From: Escherichia phage vB_EcoM_Alf5
Sequence record: KX377933
Strand: one strand, 5' to 3'
DNA: 64,000 nt
The position numbers were made by a program, and so were the translations under genes. Shown in pieces: positions 2,447 through 36,710 of the stretch (its first letter is position 1; each line of letters starts with the position of its first letter). The notes below the pieces were generated by a model. That model was not told the origin of the DNA and ran no database searches. It saw nothing but the letters and a program-made list of their open reading frames with translations.

Positions 2447-3556
2447 ATGACTACTAAAACTAAAGCACAGATTGACGCAGAAATTTACGAACTGGTTAAA
2501 GAAGGTAAGCTGACTAAAACAGCTATTGCACAGAAGTTCAATACTTCAACCCGTTCAGTTGGTCGTGCTGTAGAGCGTCATGAAGCAACCTTAAAAGGTA
2601 AGAAAAAGGTAGCTTCTAAACCAGCTACGAAGACTTTGAAGCAAGTTGCTAAATCAGTTAAAAAGAAAGCTGACAAACCAGTTGAAAAGGTTGTTAAAGA
2701 GCCTGTACAGAAAGCTCCGGTAAATAAACTGCATGAAGCTATGCAGAATGGCAACCAGATTGAGTACATGATTACTGGCGACTCTGTTATCATGACTTTC
2801 GGTGCAGATTCTGAAATCGTTGAATCTACCCATCCGAACTACAAAGAAATCGTGATGGCTGTTGTATCAGGTGAGTATAAGAAAGCTTTCGAACTGATGA
2901 ACATTCGTAAGTCTATCGAAAACTTCACTCAGGGTGCTATCACCATCAAAGGTGACAAGTTATTCTACGGTGCTGTTGAGATGCGTTCTACTCTGGTTGA
3001 CCGTATTCTTCACATGATGAAGACTGGAGATAAGGGTTTTGAACGCCTTGTGATGTTCTTCGAAAAACTGATGGAAAACCCATCTAAAGATTCTGTAGAA
3101 CAACTTTGGGGATTCGTATCTCACCTTGATGTTGAAATTGATGAAGAAGGCTACATCATTGGTTGGAAGAAAGTCTCTACTCATGAAGGCAAGCTGGTTG
3201 ACTCCCACACCTACAGAGTACCTAATGATTTGGGTAACATTGTAGAAATGCCACGTTGGATGGTTGATAATAACCGTAACGTGACTTGCTCTCAGGGTCT
3301 TCACGTTGGTGCTTGGGATTATGTTCGTTGCTTCTCAGGTGATACAATCCTGAAGGTTCGTGTCCATCCACGAGATGTTGTATCTGTTCCAACTGATTAC
3401 AACGATATGAAGATGCGTTCGTCTCGTTATGAAGTTGCAGCAATCGTTGATAATCAACGTAAAGTGCTGAAAGAATGGGATGGCAAGACTGAAGCTTTGC
3501 ATGTCATCGTTGGCACTGCTGGTGAACTAATCTCCCAACGTAAACGTGAAATCTAA
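2447..3556 (+). CDS. rIIB: rIIB-like protein
   Basis: 369-aa ORF; C-terminal VHPRDVVSVPTDYNDMKMR and TCSQGLHVG segments match the rIIB pattern as I recall it; adjacent to rIIA. Confidence 0.7.
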   Translation: MTTKTKAQIDAEIYELVKEGKLTKTAIAQKFNTSTRSVGRAVERHEATLKGKKKVASKPATKTLKQVAKSVKKKADKPVEKVVKEPVQKAPVNKLHEAMQNGNQIEYMITGDSVIMTFGADSEIVESTHPNYKEIVMAVVSGEYKKAFELMNIRKSIENFTQGAITIKGDKLFYGAVEMRSTLVDRILHMMKTGDKGFERLVMFFEKLMENPSKDSVEQLWGFVSHLDVEIDEEGYIIGWKKVSTHEGKLVDSHTYRVPNDLGNIVEMPRWMVDNNRNVTCSQGLHVGAWDYVRCFSGDTILKVRVHPRDVVSVPTDYNDMKMRSSRYEVAAIVDNQRKVLKEWDGKTEALHVIVGTAGELISQRKREI

Positions 3557-3656: not shown

Positions 3657-4205
3657 ATGAAGAAATTGATTCTAGGTTTGTGCTTAATGTTTACAGCACA
3701 CTTATCTTATGCAGTTGACTGCCCAGAGCTATCAATTAGCCAAAAAGTAAACATGTTAAAAGCTTACCAGTATGGTGAGAATAACATGGGTAAAGGTTGG
3801 GGTATCACTCTAGCTGCTATAGCCTTACAAGAGTCAGAGTTAGGTCTGAAGGTAGAGAATAAAAAGACACATGATTATGGTATCTTCCAGAATCACTTGA
3901 AGACTGTTGTAAAGCGTAACAAAATCAGTCCTAATGTGGCTAAAAAGAAACTCTTAAAAGATTTTGACTATGCTGCAAAGGAAACACACAAAGAGCTTGA
4001 ATTTTGGACTAAGGTACACGGTCAACCAAAGTCAAAGAAGACTTTACAAAAAGTTTTAGCATCATATAATGCTGGGTATTCATACAAAATTCCTAAAGCT
4101 AAGAAATACTCTCAAGATGTCTATAACAATATGAAAGTCATCGCTCAATGTGAATTTGCAACAAACATTTCTAAGGTAAATCATGAAAAAATTAAGAAAG
4201 TTTGA
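3657..4205 (+). CDS. lytic transglycosylase (SLT domain) with signal peptide
   Basis: N-terminal hydrophobic signal; ES (ALQESELGL), GIFQ and AYNAG-like (ASYNAGYSY) motifs of family 1 transglycosylases. Confidence 0.55.
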   Translation: MKKLILGLCLMFTAHLSYAVDCPELSISQKVNMLKAYQYGENNMGKGWGITLAAIALQESELGLKVENKKTHDYGIFQNHLKTVVKRNKISPNVAKKKLLKDFDYAAKETHKELEFWTKVHGQPKSKKTLQKVLASYNAGYSYKIPKAKKYSQDVYNNMKVIAQCEFATNISKVNHEKIKKV

Positions 4206-4878
4206 TGAAGTATTGTGCCATGCTTATGACTTACATCCTCATGAGTTAGGTCTTGATTCCTGTGTATGGACTCCAGAACAGTGCAGGGATTTTGAAGACA
4301 CCGCAAGAGAAGTTGTATGTTCACTTGAAGAGTTCCACACATCAGAACCAATTGTGAACGTTGTGGACAAAGAGACTGGGCAATCCATAGGTGTAAAACG
4401 TGATAGTTTAGTCATAGTCAACAAAGACCTTGTAGAGAAAGGTAATCTTATCTTAGCAGATATTGATGGAGTTCTTACAAATTTTAATCACGAAGATTGT
4501 TCAACGGAATTGACTGATGGTTCATTTTCACAGTACACTAATCTTCTTGACTCTGTAAGAGCAAAACCAACGTATGTTTTCAATATCATTGATGCAATTG
4601 CTAATCATGCTGCCGTTGGACTCTTGACAGCGAGAGGCGAATCTCAGAGAATACCTACTGAGATGTTTTTAAGGCATAACACAGAGCATGATTATATGCT
4701 TTTTATGCGTGGTTTTGGAACTAACTCTATAAGTGCAGAAAGTTTGAAAGTGAGGATGATTCAGTCTTGCATTCTGCCTTACTTTAATATAGTATGTTTT
4801 ATAGAAGATACAGAGAAGAATGTGCAGAAGGTGAATAGAATCCTTCCACACATCAAAACCATGTTAGTTAAACATTGA
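4183..4878 (+). CDS. hypothetical protein, possible HAD-like hydrolase
   Basis: 231-aa ORF; LILADIDGVLT resembles HAD motif I but lies ~95 aa from N-terminus; weak. Confidence 0.4.
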   Translation: MKKLRKFDEVLCHAYDLHPHELGLDSCVWTPEQCRDFEDTAREVVCSLEEFHTSEPIVNVVDKETGQSIGVKRDSLVIVNKDLVEKGNLILADIDGVLTNFNHEDCSTELTDGSFSQYTNLLDSVRAKPTYVFNIIDAIANHAAVGLLTARGESQRIPTEMFLRHNTEHDYMLFMRGFGTNSISAESLKVRMIQSCILPYFNIVCFIEDTEKNVQKVNRILPHIKTMLVKH

Positions 4879-18916: not shown

Positions 18917-18943
18917 AAATAAAAAAGGCTCCCGAAGGAGCCT
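18917..18943 (-). terminator. Rho-independent terminator (minus strand) downstream of lysozyme
   Basis: GGCTCC-CGAA-GGAGCC hairpin with A-run on plus strand, i.e. U-run on the minus transcript. Confidence 0.5.
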
Positions 18944-18952
18944 ATGAAGATA

Positions 18953-19417
18953 TTACTTTGGATATACACTGTCAAGATAAATGTCAGTTTCCATTCTACG
19001 TCTGTTTTTCAGGCCGTTTGAAGTGACCTTCTTACCTTTGACTGTAACCTTGTTCCACCACTGCATAGCTTCTGCACAACCTACCTTGTCACCAGCATTA
19101 TGTCGCTTGATAAATGTAGAATCCTGCATAGCTGTGATACCGATGTTGTATGTTTCACTTACAAGTGCATCGAACTCATTCTGAGATGTTGGAACCTTGA
19201 TAGCTTTATTCACTGCTGCAACGAACTTCTCAACATCTGCAAGAAGATACTGTTCAGCCTGCTCAGCAGCAATTTTCATACCCATCTTAACAGGTTTTCC
19301 GTCAATACGGATTGTACCATACCCGATTGTTGGGATTCCGGCAGAGTCTTCGTAAGCCTCTAACTTCAGACCTTCAAAGAACTTAATAGCATCTAAGCCT
19401 TTTCTTGAGAGTTGCAT
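18953..19417 (-). CDS. T4-type lysozyme (glycoside hydrolase family 24)
   Basis: FEGLKLEAYEDSAGIPTIGYGT matches catalytic Glu/Asp/Thr region of GH24 lysozymes. Confidence 0.8.
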   Translation of the reverse strand: MQLSRKGLDAIKFFEGLKLEAYEDSAGIPTIGYGTIRIDGKPVKMGMKIAAEQAEQYLLADVEKFVAAVNKAIKVPTSQNEFDALVSETYNIGITAMQDSTFIKRHNAGDKVGCAEAMQWWNKVTVKGKKVTSNGLKNRRRMETDIYLDSVYPK

Positions 19418-20550
19418 TATGCCTCCCCTGCTGGGTTAACAGTAACTGTTGCTGCATTAGATGTTACAGAGCCACCTGCACCAGTAACTACACAGGCGTA
19501 GCTTCCTGCATCAGCAGTGGTTGCACCTTCTTTGGTGTAAGTTGCAGTAGTTGCATCGAGGATGTCTTCCTCCCCTTTCTTCCACTGATAACCTGTCGCA
19601 CCTGTTGCCGCAACATTCAGCGTTAAGGTCTCACCTTCATTAATTTCTTGATTGGTTGGCTGTTGAGTAATTACTGGAAGTGCGTTCACAGTTACTACAG
19701 CAGCATTAGATGTCACTGCACCACCCGCACCTGTTACAACGCAAGTATATGAACCTGCATCTGCTGGAAGCGCACCAGACTTGCTATAGGTAGCTTCTGT
19801 AGCCGAAGGAATGTCAGAACCATCTTTCTTCCACTGGTAACCTGTCGCACCTGTTGCAGTCACTTCCAAGTTAATGCTTCCACCCTCATTGACAGTCTGA
19901 CCAGAAGGCTGCTGTGTAATCACAGGCAGTGCATTAACAGTAACTGTTGCCACATCTGAGGTGACACTTGTTCCAGCCTCTCCAGATACAACACAAGTGT
20001 ATGAACCTGCATCAGAAGGTAATACAGACTGTTTTGTGTAGGTTGCAGAGGTGGCACTAGTGATATCCTCACCATCCTTTTTCCATTGATATCCAGTGGC
20101 ATTCGTTGCAACAACACTTAGGGTAAGCGTACCACCTTCATTTACTGTTTGATTGGTTGGCTGCTGAGTGATTGCTGGTGGCTTGATAGCATCCTTCAAC
20201 TTAGCATTCAACATTGAGAACGGCTTAACCCTTGCCAGCCATTCACAATAAATTGTATCAACGTCTTTACCATTGATAATTGCATATTGTAAGTCCATGA
20301 AGAAGTCAGAAGTTCTCATTTGAGCACCGATGCTGTAAAGCAACTCATCACTAAATGGAACTTTGTAGTCTGGTTTGTAGTCAAACTCCTCAACTTCTGC
20401 AATATCAGCTTCAGGCCAATACGAACTATAGGTAAGCGGTAAAATAGCCTCTTGATATGTTCTAAAATCATATCTCTTACCAGCTTTTACGTTTGCAATG
20501 AAGCCCTTCACAAACTCTTTGAAGTCTGGGTAAGTCTTTGCTTTAATCAT
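19417..20550 (-). CDS. protein with N-terminal domain plus three tandem Ig-like repeats
   Basis: three ~90-aa repeats of PVITQQP..QTVNEGG..TGYQWKKDG..DAGSYTCVV..VTVNA; stop overlaps lysozyme start. Confidence 0.6.
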   Translation of the reverse strand: MIKAKTYPDFKEFVKGFIANVKAGKRYDFRTYQEAILPLTYSSYWPEADIAEVEEFDYKPDYKVPFSDELLYSIGAQMRTSDFFMDLQYAIINGKDVDTIYCEWLARVKPFSMLNAKLKDAIKPPAITQQPTNQTVNEGGTLTLSVVATNATGYQWKKDGEDITSATSATYTKQSVLPSDAGSYTCVVSGEAGTSVTSDVATVTVNALPVITQQPSGQTVNEGGSINLEVTATGATGYQWKKDGSDIPSATEATYSKSGALPADAGSYTCVVTGAGGAVTSNAAVVTVNALPVITQQPTNQEINEGETLTLNVAATGATGYQWKKGEEDILDATTATYTKEGATTADAGSYACVVTGAGGSVTSNAATVTVNPAGEA

Positions 20551-20918
20551 TTCTTTTTAGCCTCTAAATGTGCGTTTAGTCTAAAATAACCTTTGTGATG
20601 TGGAGATACGTCACCAACAACAATACCTTTAACCTTATAACCTTTACCAATTACATACTGGATATCCATAAGGAATCTTCCAAGACCAACAATATGGAAC
20701 ATTGGATATAGTAGATTCTCAGAATCTGGAATATTTATTTCAGGTTTGTAGGTGCGTTGTTCACTTGTTGGTGTAATATCTTCTTCAGGCCATTTGCTGA
20801 GTCTCCATGTCAAAGGTGTTGGGATAACATCATTAAGGTTGTACCTTTCACCATTTTGCACGGAATTGATATAGGATTGTAGGAAGCAATAAAAGTCTTT
20901 TGCACTCTTAGCCTTCAT
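20547..20918 (-). CDS. paralog of the N-terminal domain of the Ig-repeat protein
   Basis: 123 aa aligning with residues 1-120 of the downstream 377-aa protein (KxxFxxFxxxYIxxVxxGxRY...FLMDIQY). Confidence 0.5.
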   Translation of the reverse strand: MKAKSAKDFYCFLQSYINSVQNGERYNLNDVIPTPLTWRLSKWPEEDITPTSEQRTYKPEINIPDSENLLYPMFHIVGLGRFLMDIQYVIGKGYKVKGIVVGDVSPHHKGYFRLNAHLEAKKK

Positions 20919-20929
20919 TAAATATCCTT

Positions 20930-20957
20930 ATAAATAATTAAAGGGGCATCAGCCCCT
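20930..20957 (-). terminator. possible terminator (minus strand)
   Basis: GGGGC-ATCA-GCCCC hairpin flanked by AT-rich run. Confidence 0.35.
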
Positions 20958-20965
20958 ATTCACAC

Positions 20966-21556
20966 TTAAGCTTTGGTCTTAAGTAGGTTCTTAAGTTTTT
21001 TAAGATTCATACTCTCATCAAACTTAAAACCAAATCCATTGACATAATCAATGAACTCGGATTTCTTACTGAGTGACAATGCGTAACTCATATCAAAGTT
21101 CTTACTTGTTTCTGCGTCTGGACTAGAGTTCACATCAAATGAAATTTCTGTAGGCTCTTGCTTACTTTTTCTCATATTATCAGTCAATAAACATGTATAG
21201 TTTGCTGGATAGAAGTTTACACTACCATCAACGTAGCTGTACTTATTATTATGAATAAGGTTGGAAAATACCTTAAGGAATGTTTCTGAGTCGTGGCAAA
21301 CAAGTTTGAATTGGCTGGACTCTCCAAGCGCAACTAATGAGTACGGACTTTCACTATCAAAGTCATATTTTGGATTCGATGCCGTCACTGTTACACGCAT
21401 CAAGTTATTAGCAATAGTCTTCTGTTTAAAAGAATTTTGAACATAGTGAAGACCCCTCTCACACTGATTGACTAGCTCTTTAAGTAGGTCATTTGCATAA
21501 GGTGAGTTAATTGATACAGAGCCATCACTATTGTAATTAAAACTTACTGTTAGCAT
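20966..21556 (-). CDS. hypothetical protein
   Basis: 196-aa ORF. Confidence 0.45.
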   Translation of the reverse strand: MLTVSFNYNSDGSVSINSPYANDLLKELVNQCERGLHYVQNSFKQKTIANNLMRVTVTASNPKYDFDSESPYSLVALGESSQFKLVCHDSETFLKVFSNLIHNNKYSYVDGSVNFYPANYTCLLTDNMRKSKQEPTEISFDVNSSPDAETSKNFDMSYALSLSKKSEFIDYVNGFGFKFDESMNLKKLKNLLKTKA

Positions 21557-22175: not shown

Positions 22176-22547
22176 ATGAAAAACAGAACAAACAAAGGCC
22201 AGTTTAAAAAAGGCCAGTCTGGAAACCCATCTGGAAGACCAAAAGGCTCTCGTAACAAAAGCTCACTCGTAAAAGCTCAACTGACCATTGATAATTCTGC
22301 TGAGTTTGCTGCAAAATTGTTTGAGGCGATTGTTACAAGGGACGCTGCTAAGCTTGCAGAGTTCGGTTTGACGACTGACGATGTAAACCTGAAGTCGATG
22401 ATGGAAGCTGGTAAAACTATCATGACCCACTCAGCAGGTGAGATGAAAGCGATTGCAGCAGACACTAAGAAGACCCCTGATAATGGTGGTCAAACCCAGA
22501 CAGATAACAAACCAACGTTTTCTGCTGTAGCGACTCTCAAAAAATAA
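22176..22547 (+). CDS. hypothetical protein with N-terminal KKGQSGNPSGRPKG motif
   Basis: 123-aa ORF; Gly/Pro/basic N-terminal motif, Ala-rich helical middle. Confidence 0.45.
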   Translation: MKNRTNKGQFKKGQSGNPSGRPKGSRNKSSLVKAQLTIDNSAEFAAKLFEAIVTRDAAKLAEFGLTTDDVNLKSMMEAGKTIMTHSAGEMKAIAADTKKTPDNGGQTQTDNKPTFSAVATLKK

Positions 22548-22626: not shown

Positions 22627-24042
22627 ATGAGCGAGTTATTTAAACATGCACACCTTCATGCAGGTCGGACTGAAAATGGTGCTGTAAACCATACTTCATC
22701 AATGTCTGCTCTGGTAGACTTTTACAAAGCCGCTGGCTCAAGCCGTAGCAATGTAGAAATCTTACCAGACCTGTTCTACAAAGCTTTGCATGAGGATGTT
22801 GATGTTGCAGTTCGTATTTTACTGCATATGCGAGATGTACGAGAAGGTATGGGTGAGCGTAAAGCTTTCCGAACTGTTTTACTTCAAGCAATTGAAGATA
22901 AAGTTTTAGAGCCTACACAGGTTCTTCGCATTATGGATAAGATTGCAGAACTTGGTCGTTTTGATGACTTCAAAATCTTCGTAGGTACTCGTTTCGAGAC
23001 GGATGCCTTCAAACATTTAGAGGCAGCATTACTAGACCCTGCAACAGCAGGTTTGGCAGCTAAGTGGTTACCACGAGTCAAACCACGTCATAAGCAGTTT
23101 GTAAAACGTTTCTGCAAGTTTGCCAACTTGAGTGAGAAAGAGTACCGCACACTGTTATCTGCACTGTCTGATACGGTTGAGCAAAAAATCTCTGCTAATG
23201 AGTTTGGTAAGATTGACTACAGCAAGATTCCTTCACTCGCTGCTGCACGTTACCAAAAGCTCTTTAACCGCAAAGATGGAGAACGTTACAAAGCTTACAT
23301 CGAATCACTCTCAAAGGGTGAGTCTAAGATTAACGCTGGTGCTGTTTATCCATACGATGTGATTAAGTCTATCAAGCATGGTAATGCAGATGTTGCCAAT
23401 GAGCAGTGGAAAGCACTACCAAACTGGATGGCAGAAGGTGAGAACATCTTGTGTATGACTGATGTTTCAAGCTCAATGTCTTGGGTGAATCTTGGTTCAA
23501 TCACTGCCCTTGATATTGGTGTATCACTTGCCTTGTATGTAGCAGAACGCAATACAGGTTGCTTTAAGGATGAGTTGATGGTTTATTCAACAAACCCTCA
23601 CTTCATTGAACTGAGTGGTGATTTACGAAACCGTCATCGTCAGGTGATGCGACACGTTGAATATGGCTCAACTAACTTACAGGCAGCTTTTGACCGCATT
23701 CTTGAGGTAGGTAAAAGAAACAACTTGACTCAGAAAGATATGCCAAGTAAGCTTATCATCTTCTCTGATATGGAGTTCAATCAGGTTGATGGAGCTAATG
23801 GTCGTACAAACTTTGAAGCAATTCAGAGTAAGTACAAAAAAGCTGGATATGAGATGCCACAACTGGTATTCTGGTACTTAGCAAACCGTAATGGTACTTG
23901 CGAAGTGTCTGTTAAGGATAACGGTGTAGCAATGGTATCTGGTTTCTCTCCAGCCACTTTAAAAGCTTTGCTTGGTGGTGAGAAGTTTGACCCAATCAGT
24001 GTAATGCTCAAAGCAGTAATGATTGACCGTTACATCTGGTAA
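22627..24042 (+). CDS. Ro60/Rsr-like protein (TROVE-like N-terminal region plus vWA domain with MIDAS)
   Basis: 471 aa; LCMTDVSSSM (DxSxS), downstream GSTNL and IIFSDMEF fit a vWA MIDAS; ERKAFRTVL resembles Ro60 TROVE as recalled. Confidence 0.55.
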   Translation: MSELFKHAHLHAGRTENGAVNHTSSMSALVDFYKAAGSSRSNVEILPDLFYKALHEDVDVAVRILLHMRDVREGMGERKAFRTVLLQAIEDKVLEPTQVLRIMDKIAELGRFDDFKIFVGTRFETDAFKHLEAALLDPATAGLAAKWLPRVKPRHKQFVKRFCKFANLSEKEYRTLLSALSDTVEQKISANEFGKIDYSKIPSLAAARYQKLFNRKDGERYKAYIESLSKGESKINAGAVYPYDVIKSIKHGNADVANEQWKALPNWMAEGENILCMTDVSSSMSWVNLGSITALDIGVSLALYVAERNTGCFKDELMVYSTNPHFIELSGDLRNRHRQVMRHVEYGSTNLQAAFDRILEVGKRNNLTQKDMPSKLIIFSDMEFNQVDGANGRTNFEAIQSKYKKAGYEMPQLVFWYLANRNGTCEVSVKDNGVAMVSGFSPATLKALLGGEKFDPISVMLKAVMIDRYIW

Positions 24043-35189: not shown

Positions 35190-35567
35190 ATGGCATATCA
35201 AGGTTTTACTAAGTTAGGTAACAGAGAACCTCTGAATGATATCATTCTTTGGGAACAGATTACCCCAACAGGCCACTCTCGTAAAGAGTACACTCCGGTT
35301 GCTTCAACAGAATACCGTGTAGGTGAAGTTCTGAAAGCAGACGGTACTAAGGTACAAGCTGGAGAAGAAGCCCAAGCAGACTCTGTATGTATCGTTAATT
35401 TCTACGCAGACCTGCAATTGTCTTATCATGGTCAGTTGAAAGTGGTAGGTATCCACCGTGATGCAGAACTAAAAGACCTGCTGACTCTTGAATCAAGCGT
35501 TAATGCTGCTGAAGTCAAGAAAGCTCTGGCTGCTAAAGGTATTGATTTCGTACCAACTGGCCTGTAA
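35190..35567 (+). CDS. hypothetical protein between protease and capsid
   Basis: 125-aa ORF. Confidence 0.4.
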   Translation: MAYQGFTKLGNREPLNDIILWEQITPTGHSRKEYTPVASTEYRVGEVLKADGTKVQAGEEAQADSVCIVNFYADLQLSYHGQLKVVGIHRDAELKDLLTLESSVNAAEVKKALAAKGIDFVPTGL

Positions 35568-35600: not shown

Positions 35601-36710
35601 ATGTTGACTAATTCTGAAAAAAGCAGATTTTTACTTGCTGACCTGACTCGTGAAGTCCAGTCTATCCCAAACACTTATGGGTATATTTCCAACTTAGGTC
35701 TGTTCCGTTCAGCACCACAAACTCAGACAACCTTCCTGATGGACTTGACAGATTGGGATATCAGCTTGCTTGATGCTGTAGACCGCACTAGCCGTAAAGC
35801 TGAAACAAGTGCTCCTGAGCGTGTTCGTCAAATCAGCTTCCCAATGCTGTACTTCAAGGAAGTTGAAAGCATTACTCCTGATGAGATTCAGGGTGTACGT
35901 CAGCCAGGTACTGCAAATGAACTAACCACTGAAGCCATCGTTCGTGCTAAGAAGCTGATGAAGATTCGCACCAAGTTCGATATTACTCGTGAGTTCTTGT
36001 TCATGCAAGCTCTGAAGGGTAAAGTTATCGACGCTAATGGTGTTCTGTACGCAGACCTGTACAAACAGTTCGATGTAACTAAGAAGACTATCTACTTCGA
36101 CCTTGACAATCCGAACTCTGATATTGATGCTCACATCGAAGACCTACGTATGCACATGGAAGACGAAGCTAAGACTGGTACTGTAATCAACGGTGAAGAG
36201 ATTCACGTAGTTGTTGACAGAACTTTCTTCAGTAAACTTACCAAGCATCCGAAGATTCGTGACGCATACCTTGCACAGCAGACTCCGCTGGCATGGCAAC
36301 AGATTACTGGCTCTCTGAGAACTGGTGGTTCTGATGGTGTTCAGGCTCATATGAACACGTTCTACTACGGTGGTGTTAAGTTTGTCCAGTACAACGGTAA
36401 GTTCAAAGACAAGCGCGGCAAGACCCATACTCTGGTTAGCATCGATGGTGTTACTCAGGATGGAACTGTAGGTGTAGGGCACGCTTTCCCTAACGTTTCT
36501 ATGCTTGGTGAAGCAAACAACATCTTTGAAGTAGCTTACGCTCCATGTCCGAAGATGGGCTACGCAAATACTCTGGGTCAGGAGTTGTACGTATTTGAAT
36601 ACGAAAAAGACCGTGATGAAGGTATTGACTTTGAAGCTCACTCTTACATGCTGCCATACTGCACACGTCCTCAGTTGCTGGTAGATGTTCGTTCTGACGC
36701 TCAAGAATAA
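35601..36710 (+). CDS. major capsid protein
   Basis: 369-aa ORF after protease/scaffold; position and size typical; lambda E-like family suspected. Confidence 0.65.
   Translation: MLTNSEKSRFLLADLTREVQSIPNTYGYISNLGLFRSAPQTQTTFLMDLTDWDISLLDAVDRTSRKAETSAPERVRQISFPMLYFKEVESITPDEIQGVRQPGTANELTTEAIVRAKKLMKIRTKFDITREFLFMQALKGKVIDANGVLYADLYKQFDVTKKTIYFDLDNPNSDIDAHIEDLRMHMEDEAKTGTVINGEEIHVVVDRTFFSKLTKHPKIRDAYLAQQTPLAWQQITGSLRTGGSDGVQAHMNTFYYGGVKFVQYNGKFKDKRGKTHTLVSIDGVTQDGTVGVGHAFPNVSMLGEANNIFEVAYAPCPKMGYANTLGQELYVFEYEKDRDEGIDFEAHSYMLPYCTRPQLLVDVRSDAQE

Follow-up and report, generated by a model that had tools for sequence, protein, structure and literature searches.

The three genes at positions 18,953 to 20,918 of the window (the whole 64,000-nucleotide stretch of Escherichia phage vB_EcoM_Alf5, record KX377933, analyzed in this work) very probably form a late decoration and endolysin cassette of Felixounavirus. 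The middle gene encodes a 377-aa protein identified by its sequence as Hex-Dec, the Hoc-like protein known to decorate the capsids of Felix O1-type phages, and it is followed by the gene for a solitary GH24 endolysin. The first gene encodes a 123-aa protein and is shown here to be an old tandem duplicate of the capsid-binding domain (CapBD) of Hex-Dec alone. As the Ig-repeat decoration protein is already known, the sole new lead is this conserved CapBD-only paralog. The window itself belongs to Felixounavirus with approximately 96% DNA identity to wV8, and a megablast search with the region matched 239 Ounavirinae records, reaching 96% identity at 100% coverage for both wV8 and GEC_vB_B1.

According to the ORF list, the 123-aa ORF, the 377-aa ORF and the endolysin lie end to end on the minus strand, to which all cassette coordinates given below refer, with terminators on both sides of the three-gene unit. 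Its 5' boundary is a terminator-like hairpin (AGGGGCTGATGCCCCT with a T-rich tail, 20942..20957), which sets the 123-aa gene apart from a 196-aa gene lying upstream; a rho-independent terminator is annotated at the equivalent place in the wV8 record, and one is also listed for Felix O1 (PMC3185647). A strong intrinsic terminator (AGGCTCCTTCGGGAGCCT followed by TTTTTT, 18926..18943), which is annotated in wV8 too, closes the cassette. A sigma-70 scan gave no clear promoter: the 9 sites that it returned are no more than chance would produce (10.6 expected), and the stretch from the upstream terminator to the start of the 123-aa gene contains none. The junctions within the unit, read directly from the sequence, are tight. 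The 123-aa gene (20547..20918) ends in an ATGA overlap with the Hex-Dec start (20547..20550), and the overlap at this junction is 4 or 8 nt in all 29 related loci. The Hex-Dec gene (19417..20550) runs into the gene for the 154-aa endolysin (18953..19417; Pfam PF00959 E=1.9e-40, phrog_7) through a coupling junction at 19415..19428, where the overlap of the Hex-Dec stop with the lysozyme start reported in the first-pass annotation is borne out as TAATG with one shared base, the final A of the stop TAA (19419-19417) being the first base of the lysozyme ATG (19417-19415). The sequence GGGGAGG at 19428-19422, inside the last Hex-Dec codons, lies at a good Shine-Dalgarno distance to this ATG, and a GGAGG-type Shine-Dalgarno together with a junction ranging from a 1-nt overlap to a 2-nt gap is found in 29 of 29 related loci.

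The identity of the 377-aa protein follows from phmmer searches against the PDB, in which residues 1-362 align one to one with Bas63 Hex-Dec (9NCF_S, E=1e-294) and Sf14 gp20 is matched with E=2.5e-169 (9C2D_S and 9C3A_S; residues 1-371 against 1-370 for 9C2D_S). Its homologues in phrog_3995 include wV8 gp41 and Felix O1 ORF36 in addition to these two proteins. Bas63 Hex-Dec and Sf14 gp20 have been modelled by cryo-EM at the centers of capsid hexamers, occupying 60 of the 80 hexamers of a T=9 capsid, with Ig domains that point outward and are disordered in both reconstructions (PMC12609058, PMC11821841). According to the Sf14 paper, binding at the hexamer center is through the N-terminal 118 aa, with salt bridges from Arg79 and Arg107 to Asp221 of the major capsid protein (MCP), and its authors attribute the exclusion of the decoration protein from the 3-fold hexamers to a shift of the Asp221 side chains there. 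Mass spectrometry has also detected the homologue gp36 in Felix O1 virions with 44% coverage (PMC3185647 Table 4A) and the homologue gp20 in Sf14 virions (Sf14 structure paper).

The elements of this capsid arrangement can also be located in the window. The CapBD, delimited by alignments to Hex-Dec residues 1-118 (20197..20550), has both Arg79, invariant in the alignment, and Arg107, nearly invariant. The MCP gene lies at 35601..36710 on the plus strand (E=5.8e-240 to 9C2D_A, 5.7e-233 to 9NCF_A), and its product aligns as ...KIRDAYL... with D at position 221. The beta-tulip trimeric protein Dec, with which this phage group decorates its capsids a second time, is encoded in the same window (35190..35567, plus strand; E=3e-76 to 9NCF_J, 7.6e-71 to 9C2D_J). 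Full-length homology, the CapBD arginines, the Ig domains and a cognate MCP with Asp221 thus place the protein in the Ounavirinae Hex-Dec group. Its capsid location is transferred from relatives, with 92-99% identity within the genus and about 70% to Sf14, and its presumed binding to hexamers in the virions of this phage is taken from the cryo-EM of Bas63 and Sf14 and the mass spectrometry of Felix O1 and Sf14. By this correspondence one Hex-Dec monomer would occupy the center of every pentamer-proximal hexamer in the T=9 head, 60 in all, anchored by the helical N-terminal 118-aa CapBD with Arg79 and Arg107 paired with Asp221, and the three I-set Ig domains would reach outward as a flexible fiber. 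This fiber probably provides weak adhesion to surfaces, mucus and other particles, by analogy with T4 Hoc.

The Ig character of the remainder of the protein is robust. Three stretches each are recognized by the Pfam families Ig_3 (E=2.7e-32), I-set (E=7.9e-26) and Ig_2 (E=1.4e-24) over residues ~124-372, which together with the AF2 model and Foldseek delimit Ig-like domain 1 (residues ~124-208, 19927..20181), domain 2 (residues ~209-291, 19678..19926) and domain 3 (residues ~292-374, 19429..19677). The AF2 model is all beta with a pLDDT of 92-97 over residues 130-370, and Foldseek matches the Ig region to titin I67-I69, Robo1 Ig1-4 and LRIG1 with E about 1e-20. The first-pass annotation, which had read three Ig-like repeats from the sequence and suggested structure prediction as a check, was correct on this point. 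The outcome that it named as refuting, repeats that do not fold as Ig together with a protein missing from virions and lysis fractions, is not what is seen: the repeats are predicted to take the Ig fold, and the homologue is present in virions. At the protein level the three repeats are ~71% identical to one another, and the in-register pair of Ig2 and Ig3 has ~64% nucleotide identity; Tandem Repeats Finder called no tandem repeat for the Ig units at the DNA level, and no copies of the CapBD or of an Ig unit were found beyond the cassette in the 64-kb window. The number of Ig domains among relatives varies from 1 to 4: the present protein and Sf14 gp20 have three, Bas63 Hex-Dec has four, and other relatives have one or two.

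The general rule invoked by the first-pass annotation, that Ig domains in phages decorate virions, holds for this family, whose members are found on capsids by cryo-EM and mass spectrometry. What does not survive is the view of the present protein as an unexpected exception to the rule, since its homologues (9NCF_S and 9C2D_S, and those seen in virion mass spectrometry) are themselves virion decoration. An Ig protein at this locus is to be expected because the 377-aa protein is a virion decoration protein.

Bas63 Hex-Dec and Sf14 gp20 resemble the present system in every respect that we compared except the number of Ig domains. In all of them a CapBD bearing Arg79 and Arg107 precedes the tandem I-set Ig domains, the genome encodes the same beta-tulip Dec and the same MCP (97% identity, with Asp221), and the decoration gene lies far from the structural module and adjoins the lysin. 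The likeness to T4 Hoc is of another kind. Both are non-essential monomers at the hexamer center that combine a small capsid-binding domain with a string of Ig domains, and T4 Hoc is described in PMC10385173 as thought to mediate adhesion or aggregation, a role also suggested for Hex-Dec. However, the domain order is reversed, with Hoc binding through its C-terminus and Hex-Dec through an N-terminal CapBD, and only Hex-Dec is restricted to 60 of 80 hexamers. In the published comparison the CapBD is larger than the binding domain of Hoc and differs from it in topology, has pseudo-C2 symmetry and shares hardly any conserved sequence with it, and the matches to PHROG families labelled "Hoc-like" cover only the Ig region (residues 121-290). 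Hex-Dec thus works like Hoc, but its binding domain is not a Hoc homologue and falls outside the T4 Hoc family. With T5 pb10 the likeness is limited to the Ig part, where a single Ig domain of the present protein (residues 216-289) is matched by two PDB chains titled "Decoration protein", 5LXK_A and 8ZVI_a; pb10 has a single Ig domain in place of the three found here, and phmmer against the PDB found no similarity between the capsid-binding domains of the two proteins. As with T4 Hoc and T5 pb10, the CapBD offers a natural anchor for cargo display on Felix O1-type therapeutic and diagnostic phages.

The relationship of the 123-aa protein to the start of the 377-aa protein, likewise proposed in the first-pass annotation, is supported by BLASTP with 38% identity over 101 aa (E=2e-17; residues 1-99 against 2-100). 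In a phmmer search of the PDB the 123-aa protein matches only the structures of the 377-aa homologues (E=1e-11 for 9NCF_S over residues 2-117, and 5e-11), and it matches phrog_3995 with E=6.4e-15. Its own homologues are wV8 gp42, Felix O1 ORF37 and VpaE1 ORF40 (phrog_4463). The AF2 model is of moderate confidence (pLDDT 70, pTM 0.71), and its only significant Foldseek matches in the PDB are 9NCF_S (TM 0.59) and 9C2D_S (TM 0.57) over 120 columns. Homology to the CapBD therefore extends over the whole length of the protein and the predicted fold is the same. The loop motifs WPExDI, LLY, F.MD.QY and K..F..LNA.L are common to both paralogs. The equivalent of Arg79 is, however, an invariant Gly, and that of Arg107 is His or Gln, in 14 of 14 short paralogs, the column of Arg107 being less certain owing to a 1-residue gap in the alignment near position 107. 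The difference in charge between the two proteins of this phage (pI 9.1 for the 123-aa protein vs. 5.0 for the CapBD) was considered as a clue and dropped, as it is not conserved: the pI of the short paralog ranges from 5.1 to 9.3 over 29 loci, and the protein is acidic in Mooglevirus-type phages.

The short gene is kept intact in Felixounavirus, in Mooglevirus and in a more distant lineage, and is syntenic with Hex-Dec in 28 of 33 loci as well as in a metagenomic phage of 87 kb that is divergent. Purifying selection acts on the gene, with a dN/dS of ~0.12 (393 pairs, dS up to about 1) compared to 0.045 for the CapBD, 0.11 for Ig1 and 0.07 for the lysin. Exceptions occur in the Z31 / EcF-vB sublineage, where it has become a pseudogene through loss of the start codon, a ~225-bp deletion and frameshifts, and an intact copy is missing from about 19 of 251 phage records; phages of the REP5/REP8 type are among those with a pseudogene. 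In the phages with a pseudogene Hex-Dec stays intact, from which it follows that Hex-Dec does not depend on the short paralog. The short paralog appears dispensable, as decoration functions usually are. A reading of the 123-aa ORF as a copy in decay and without function would agree with these losses, but it is very unlikely given the dN/dS value, the steady length of 122-124 aa with the Shine-Dalgarno and ATGA overlap preserved across genera, and the detection of the transcript of Felix O1 ORF37, late, by RT-PCR (PMC3185647).

Published virion analyses argue against a presence of the short paralog on the mature capsid. It is not in the virion protein list of Felix O1 (PMC3185647), which was limited to the 17 best proteins, each covered to 25% or more, so that a 14-kDa protein at 20 copies or fewer could escape. 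As far as the main text on VpaE1 indicates, it is not among the 22 virion proteins of that phage, and the Bas63 authors do not include it among 23 virion gene products. This absence from mass spectrometry lists is weak evidence. The cryo-EM maps of Bas63 and Sf14 have no density on the other hexamers (PMC12609058, PMC11821841), although imposing icosahedral symmetry would blur a monomer that sits on a 3-fold axis. The short paralog is not discussed in either structure paper, and the supplement of the Sf14 paper contains no mention of the neighboring gene and no mass spectrometry table.

With this in mind, the role that seems to us most likely for the duplicate, which keeps the predicted fold, lacks both anchoring arginines and is not seen in virions, is to act on capsid hexamers while heads are being assembled, either transiently or in competition, for instance by holding the place of Hex-Dec or by regulating its occupancy; we hold this tentatively, as a model short of probable. 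A role as a stable virion component is less likely than such a transient or competitive one. Framed more generally, the 123-aa protein could be a free-standing capsid-binding protein that either caps the 20 three-fold hexamers free of Hex-Dec or transiently fills hexamer centers as heads assemble and in this way sets the site and amount of Hex-Dec binding, a possibility we regard as somewhat doubtful. If the paralog does act on hexamers, the phage would offer a simple natural system in which to study the control of decoration occupancy, and the Hoc-like system would be a two-gene module with an anchor-only copy and an anchor-plus-fiber copy. The lead is of modest interest to phage structural biologists and carries no wider surprise.

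A role of the short paralog away from the capsid, directed at the host or regulatory in nature, is unlikely. The loss of the capsid-anchoring arginines would suit such a role, as would non-synonymous evolution approximately three times faster than in the CapBD, dispensability in one sublineage, and the fact that the most conserved block, LLYPMFHIVGLG.FLMDIQY, departs from the CapBD exactly around position 79. Moonlighting decoration proteins also have a precedent in the satellite P4 protein Psu, which decorates hexamers and in soluble form also inhibits Rho (PMC11718236). The analogy with a free CapBD-like protein that would act off the virion is conceptual; Psu has no sequence or fold relationship to the short paralog. 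Against recruitment, Pfam gives no match for the 123-aa protein, a profile search run exhaustively over 1.84 billion representatives returned only 12 clusters, all Ounavirinae-like, and no other family, expression is late rather than early, and the gene is always attached to Hex-Dec.

Quite unlikely as well is a stable second hexamer decoration on the 20 facet-center 3-fold hexamers or other sites free of Hex-Dec. The shared predicted fold and loop motifs and the late expression together with Hex-Dec are what one would expect of such a protein, and a paralog lacking the arginines could fit the 3-fold hexamers with their shifted Asp221. It might have been overlooked through the averaging of an axial monomer and a copy number too low for easy detection by mass spectrometry. 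Nonetheless, the density-free hexamers of Bas63 and Sf14 and the virion protein lists described above argue against it, and the transient or competitive role remains our preferred reading.

The last gene of the cassette, with homologues wV8 p13/gp40 and Felix O1 ORF35, led the first-pass annotation to speak of a lysis-linked operon, which over-reads the neighborhood. The endolysin is solitary: hydropathy analysis found no SAR or transmembrane segment in it, and no holin or spanin is present in the cassette or the flanking genes. Across the three cassette proteins and three neighbors no 19-residue window reaches a Kyte-Doolittle value of 1.6, the maximum of 1.44 falling in an Ig strand. The unit thus differs from a phage lysis cassette, in which an endolysin is accompanied by membrane proteins, and Felix O1 has itself been described as lacking a holin-lysin cassette (PMC3185647). 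Distant relatives have a terminator-like hairpin between the Hex-Dec and lysozyme genes. In end-point RT-PCR of Felix O1, ORF36 and ORF37, whose numbering was verified, peak at 60 min with the morphogenesis genes and the lysin ORF35 at 25 min (PMC3185647), which does not fit a simple single transcript.

We infer that the position of Hex-Dec beside the lysin has no functional meaning for lysis and that both are simply late functions. Hex-Dec would be translationally coupled to the endolysin directly downstream and probably takes no part in lysis; the gene order, overlaps and published RT-PCR suggest that the two adjoin because both are late, non-regulatory products. That the Ig protein, with or without its paralog, aids the lysozyme, for example as a module binding the cell wall or envelope, is hardly credible and already largely refuted. 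Coupling to the GH24 gene is indeed kept in all 29 close relatives, and the adjacency persists even in distant ones, but cryo-EM and mass spectrometry identify the protein as a capsid component in relatives, it has no transmembrane or signal segments, the hairpin of distant relatives separates the two genes, and the lysin is unchanged while the Ig number varies and the Hex-Dec gene is fragmented in some viable phages.

Finally, the reading of the 377-aa protein (and of the 123-aa protein) as a tail protein has next to no chance of being right and is ruled out by PDB 9NCF and 9C2D: the GenBank and PHROG labels "tail protein" and "major tail protein", the latter also given to Felix O1 gp36 in 2010 (PMC3185647), derive from Ig-domain similarity, whereas its location by cryo-EM is on capsid hexamers, and in the Bas63 paper the annotation as a tail protein is explicitly rejected as incorrect. 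The gene in this phage, and those in most Felixounavirus records, should be annotated as encoding a Hoc-like hexamer decoration protein.

Three closely packed minus-strand ORFs occupy positions 18953-20918 of the window: a 123-aa ORF (20547..20918, hereafter the short paralog), a 377-aa ORF (19417..20550) and a 154-aa GH24 lysozyme (18953..19417; PF00959, E=1.9e-40). The first two overlap by ATGA, as read from the sequence, and GGGGAGG lies 6 nt upstream of the junction at which the 377-aa stop meets the lysozyme start. Terminator-like hairpins flank this cassette, one just upstream of the 123-aa gene and one just downstream of the lysozyme gene, and both carry a terminator annotation in phage wV8. 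All elements of the observation made in the first-pass annotation are confirmed, namely the paralogy of the 123-aa protein and the 377-aa N-terminus (38% identity, E=2e-17, over residues 2-100 of the latter), the three Ig-like repeats of the longer protein (on which Pfam matches, AF2 prediction and structural superposition agree) and the overlap of its stop with the lysozyme start (the last base of TAA is the first base of ATG).

Over its entire length the cassette region shares 96% identity with Escherichia phage wV8, with Salmonella phage GEC_vB_B1 and with many more, and essentially all of the 239 matching records are Ounavirinae. The 123-aa, 377-aa and lysozyme genes correspond to gp42, gp41 and p13 in wV8, to ORF37, ORF36 and ORF35 in Felix O1, and to ORF40, ORF39 and ORF38 in VpaE1. 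A 99%-identical Felixounavirus copy of the cassette also stands at 143190..143558 of GenBank GU169904 (“Staphylococcus phage SA1”), a 147-kb record that is probably chimeric or contaminated.

The Ig part of the 377-aa protein matches the Pfam families Ig_3 (E=2.7e-32), I-set (7.9e-26) and Ig_2 (1.4e-24), each over three stretches. The three domains are ~71% identical among themselves and are predicted with a pLDDT of 92-97, and their models superpose on the Ig arrays of titin, Robo and LRIG1 with E about 1e-20. A PDB sequence search gives two near-full-length matches, 9NCF chain S (labelled “Immunoglobulin-like domain protein”, E=1e-294) and 9C2D/9C3A chain S (labelled “Tail protein” and “Putative tail protein”, E=2.5e-169), and these entries come from icosahedral reconstructions of the capsids of Felixounavirus Bas63 and Mooglevirus Sf14, respectively. 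The protein is described as a Hoc-like decoration, under the name Hex-Dec for Bas63 and gp20 for Sf14; its N-terminal ~118 residues form a mainly helical, pseudo-C2-symmetric capsid-binding domain (CapBD), present as a monomer at the centres of pentamer-proximal hexamers only; with one CapBD per asymmetric unit, 60 hexamers out of the 80 in the T=9 shell are occupied (PMC12609058, PMC11821841). The same studies found the Ig domains to be flexible and not resolved in the capsid reconstructions, and the gene to lie >10 kb outside the structural module (PMC12609058, PMC11821841), and the Bas63 authors state that the common “tail protein” annotation is wrong (PMC12609058). In Sf14, CapBD is anchored by Arg79 and Arg107, which form salt bridges with Asp221 in three subunits of the capsid (PMC11821841). 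Mass spectrometry of purified virions detected the homologue in Sf14 (PMC11821841) and in Felix O1 (gp36, 44% coverage; PMC3185647).

Both arginines are present in the 377-aa protein of the window, which also encodes a matching major capsid protein (about 97% identical, Asp221 present) and the beta-tulip Dec protein. The number of Ig domains is 1, 2, 3 or 4 across related phages, giving proteins of 210, 294, 377 and 461 aa, a variation likewise noted by the Bas63 authors (PMC12609058). Judged by its sequence, the 377-aa protein belongs to the Hex-Dec/Sf14 gp20 family, with which it agrees in every defining feature tested. Because its homologues are capsid-bound in Bas63 and Sf14 and have been detected in virions, the Ig protein of the window is, by homology, an already described capsid decoration; it fits the general premise that Ig domains in phages serve to decorate the virion, and the earlier view that such a protein is unexpected here is not supported. 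The likeness to T4 Hoc is functional, yet the binding domain is not homologous, the domain order is opposite, the topology differs from that of CapBD in a published comparison (PMC12609058), and PHROG “Hoc-like” matches in the 377-aa protein are confined to its Ig part. In T5 pb10, too, the N-terminus is an anchor and an Ig domain comes after it, but the sequence match is restricted to the Ig domain.

No line of evidence points to a part for Hex-Dec in lysis. A hydropathy scan finds no transmembrane-grade hydrophobic segment in the cassette proteins or their immediate neighbours, the lysin of Felix O1-type phages is solitary with no adjoining holin (PMC3185647), and the lysin is intact in two viable phages, Shigella phage Z31 and Salmonella phage ST11, in which Hex-Dec is truncated and split into three ORFs, respectively. 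What the neighbouring position of the two genes shows is conserved synteny; no evidence ties it functionally to lysis. The stop/start junction with its embedded GGAGG is kept in 29 of 29 close relatives examined and also in L034, a divergent 87-kb metagenomic phage, and thus translational coupling of Hex-Dec and lysozyme seems plausible and old. In the metagenomic contigs L037 and L038, which are still more distant relatives, one CapBD gene precedes the lysozyme with a terminator-like hairpin between them. The simplest reading is late expression common to Hex-Dec and lysozyme, both being products for which no special regulation is needed. In end-point RT-PCR of Felix O1, ORF36 and ORF37 are maximal at 60 min, like tail/baseplate genes, and ORF35 (the lysin) and the upstream ORF38 at 25 min (PMC3185647 Table 3); a single simple transcript would not readily give these peaks. 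A promoter scan of the cassette region did no better than chance and gave no convincing internal promoter.

The short paralog goes untreated in the literature consulted: the terms “paralog” and “duplication” occur in neither structure paper (PMC12609058, PMC11821841), and neither refers to the gene next to Hex-Dec. The short paralog is a real gene, as its constant length (122-124 aa in every lineage keeping it), its preserved SD and ATGA overlap, its pairwise dN/dS of about 0.12 (393 comparisons; CapBD 0.045, Ig1 0.11, lysin 0.07) and the late ORF37 transcript detected in Felix O1 (PMC3185647) indicate. Its AF2 model, which is moderately confident (pLDDT 70, pTM 0.71), has 9NCF_S (TM 0.59) and 9C2D_S (TM 0.57) as its only significant PDB structural neighbours, over 120 columns, and the loop motifs WPExDI, LLY, F.MD.QY and K..F..LNA.L are common to the short paralog and CapBD families. 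Sequence similarity and this model identify the short paralog as a predicted CapBD. The family is very narrow, a two-paralog profile recovering only 12 clusters from 1.84 billion cluster representatives, and all of the 12 with readable genomic context are Ounavirinae-like. The duplication is older than the split of the Felixounavirus, Mooglevirus and L034 lineages. Relatives further away carry just one CapBD gene, whose product has an Ig domain, a Big_2-type domain or nothing more than a Lys-rich tail. In L037 (8001..8462) and L038 (4512..4973) this is a 153-aa protein encoded directly upstream of the GH24 lysozyme, in which a Lys-rich, probably disordered, tail replaces the Ig domains; the Big_2-type domain occurs in other distant CapBD members (P0099).

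None of the 14 aligned short paralogs keeps the two arginines: the Arg79 position always holds Gly, the Arg107 position His or Gln, and the most conserved part of the protein, the block LLYPMFHIVGLG.FLMDIQY, departs from CapBD exactly around the Arg79 position. The short paralog is missing from the Felix O1 virion protein list (PMC3185647) and, going by the main text of the VpaE1 paper, is not among the 22 virion proteins of that phage, where it is ORF40 and where only gp54, gp58 and gp68 lack a Felix O1 counterpart. In the sublineage of Z31 and Escherichia phage EcF-vB it is a pseudogene (3306..3497 of the Z31 locus L002 and the corresponding region in EcF-vB) whose start codon reads ATA instead of ATG and which has lost ~225 bp internally and contains frameshifts, and since both phages carry the identical lesion, a single event is indicated. 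Hex-Dec is intact (377 aa) beside this pseudogene in EcF-vB and truncated to 134 aa in Z31, and an intact short paralog is missing in about 19 of 251 phage records. The short paralog is thus dispensable, and Hex-Dec is independent of it. In ST11 (3869..4750 of its locus L004) Hex-Dec is present as three short ORFs, with short paralog and lysin intact; the split is a knock-out that arose in nature or else the product of sequencing errors.

We take the short paralog to be an accessory protein with the CapBD fold, non-essential to the phage and not built into the virion as a stable, stoichiometric component. The mechanism that we favour, tentatively, is that it still works at the centres of capsid hexamers while heads are being assembled, either transiently or in competition. 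Recruitment to a non-capsid function, for which P4 Psu (PMC11718236) offers a conceptual precedent, seems unlikely. Somewhat less probable still, it could stably cap the 20 hexamers on the three-fold axes and have escaped notice because symmetry averaging blurs it and its copy number is low; the cryo-EM papers report the other hexamers to be without density (PMC12609058, PMC11821841). That it is a functionless remnant is very improbable and is contradicted by the dN/dS value. The basic pI of the short paralog (9.1 vs. 5.0 for CapBD here) was rejected as a clue, as it is not conserved across genera. What interest remains is modest and concerns the short paralog, a conserved and unstudied anchor-only version of a decoration protein's capsid-binding domain.

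Immediately upstream of the cassette lies a gene for a 196-aa protein (20966..21556, minus strand; phrog_4034), for which a Pfam search gave no significant match; its L037 counterpart has a faint precomputed match to PF26097 (Phage_Inh_N). Transcribed divergently from the cassette are genes for a DUF5681 protein (22176..22547, plus strand) and a 471-aa DUF2828/TROVE-like “RNA-binding protein” (22627..24042, plus strand; phrog_850), which are followed by a tRNA cluster in wV8. Even L037 and L041, the most distant relatives found, have this divergent pair beside their CapBD and lysozyme genes.
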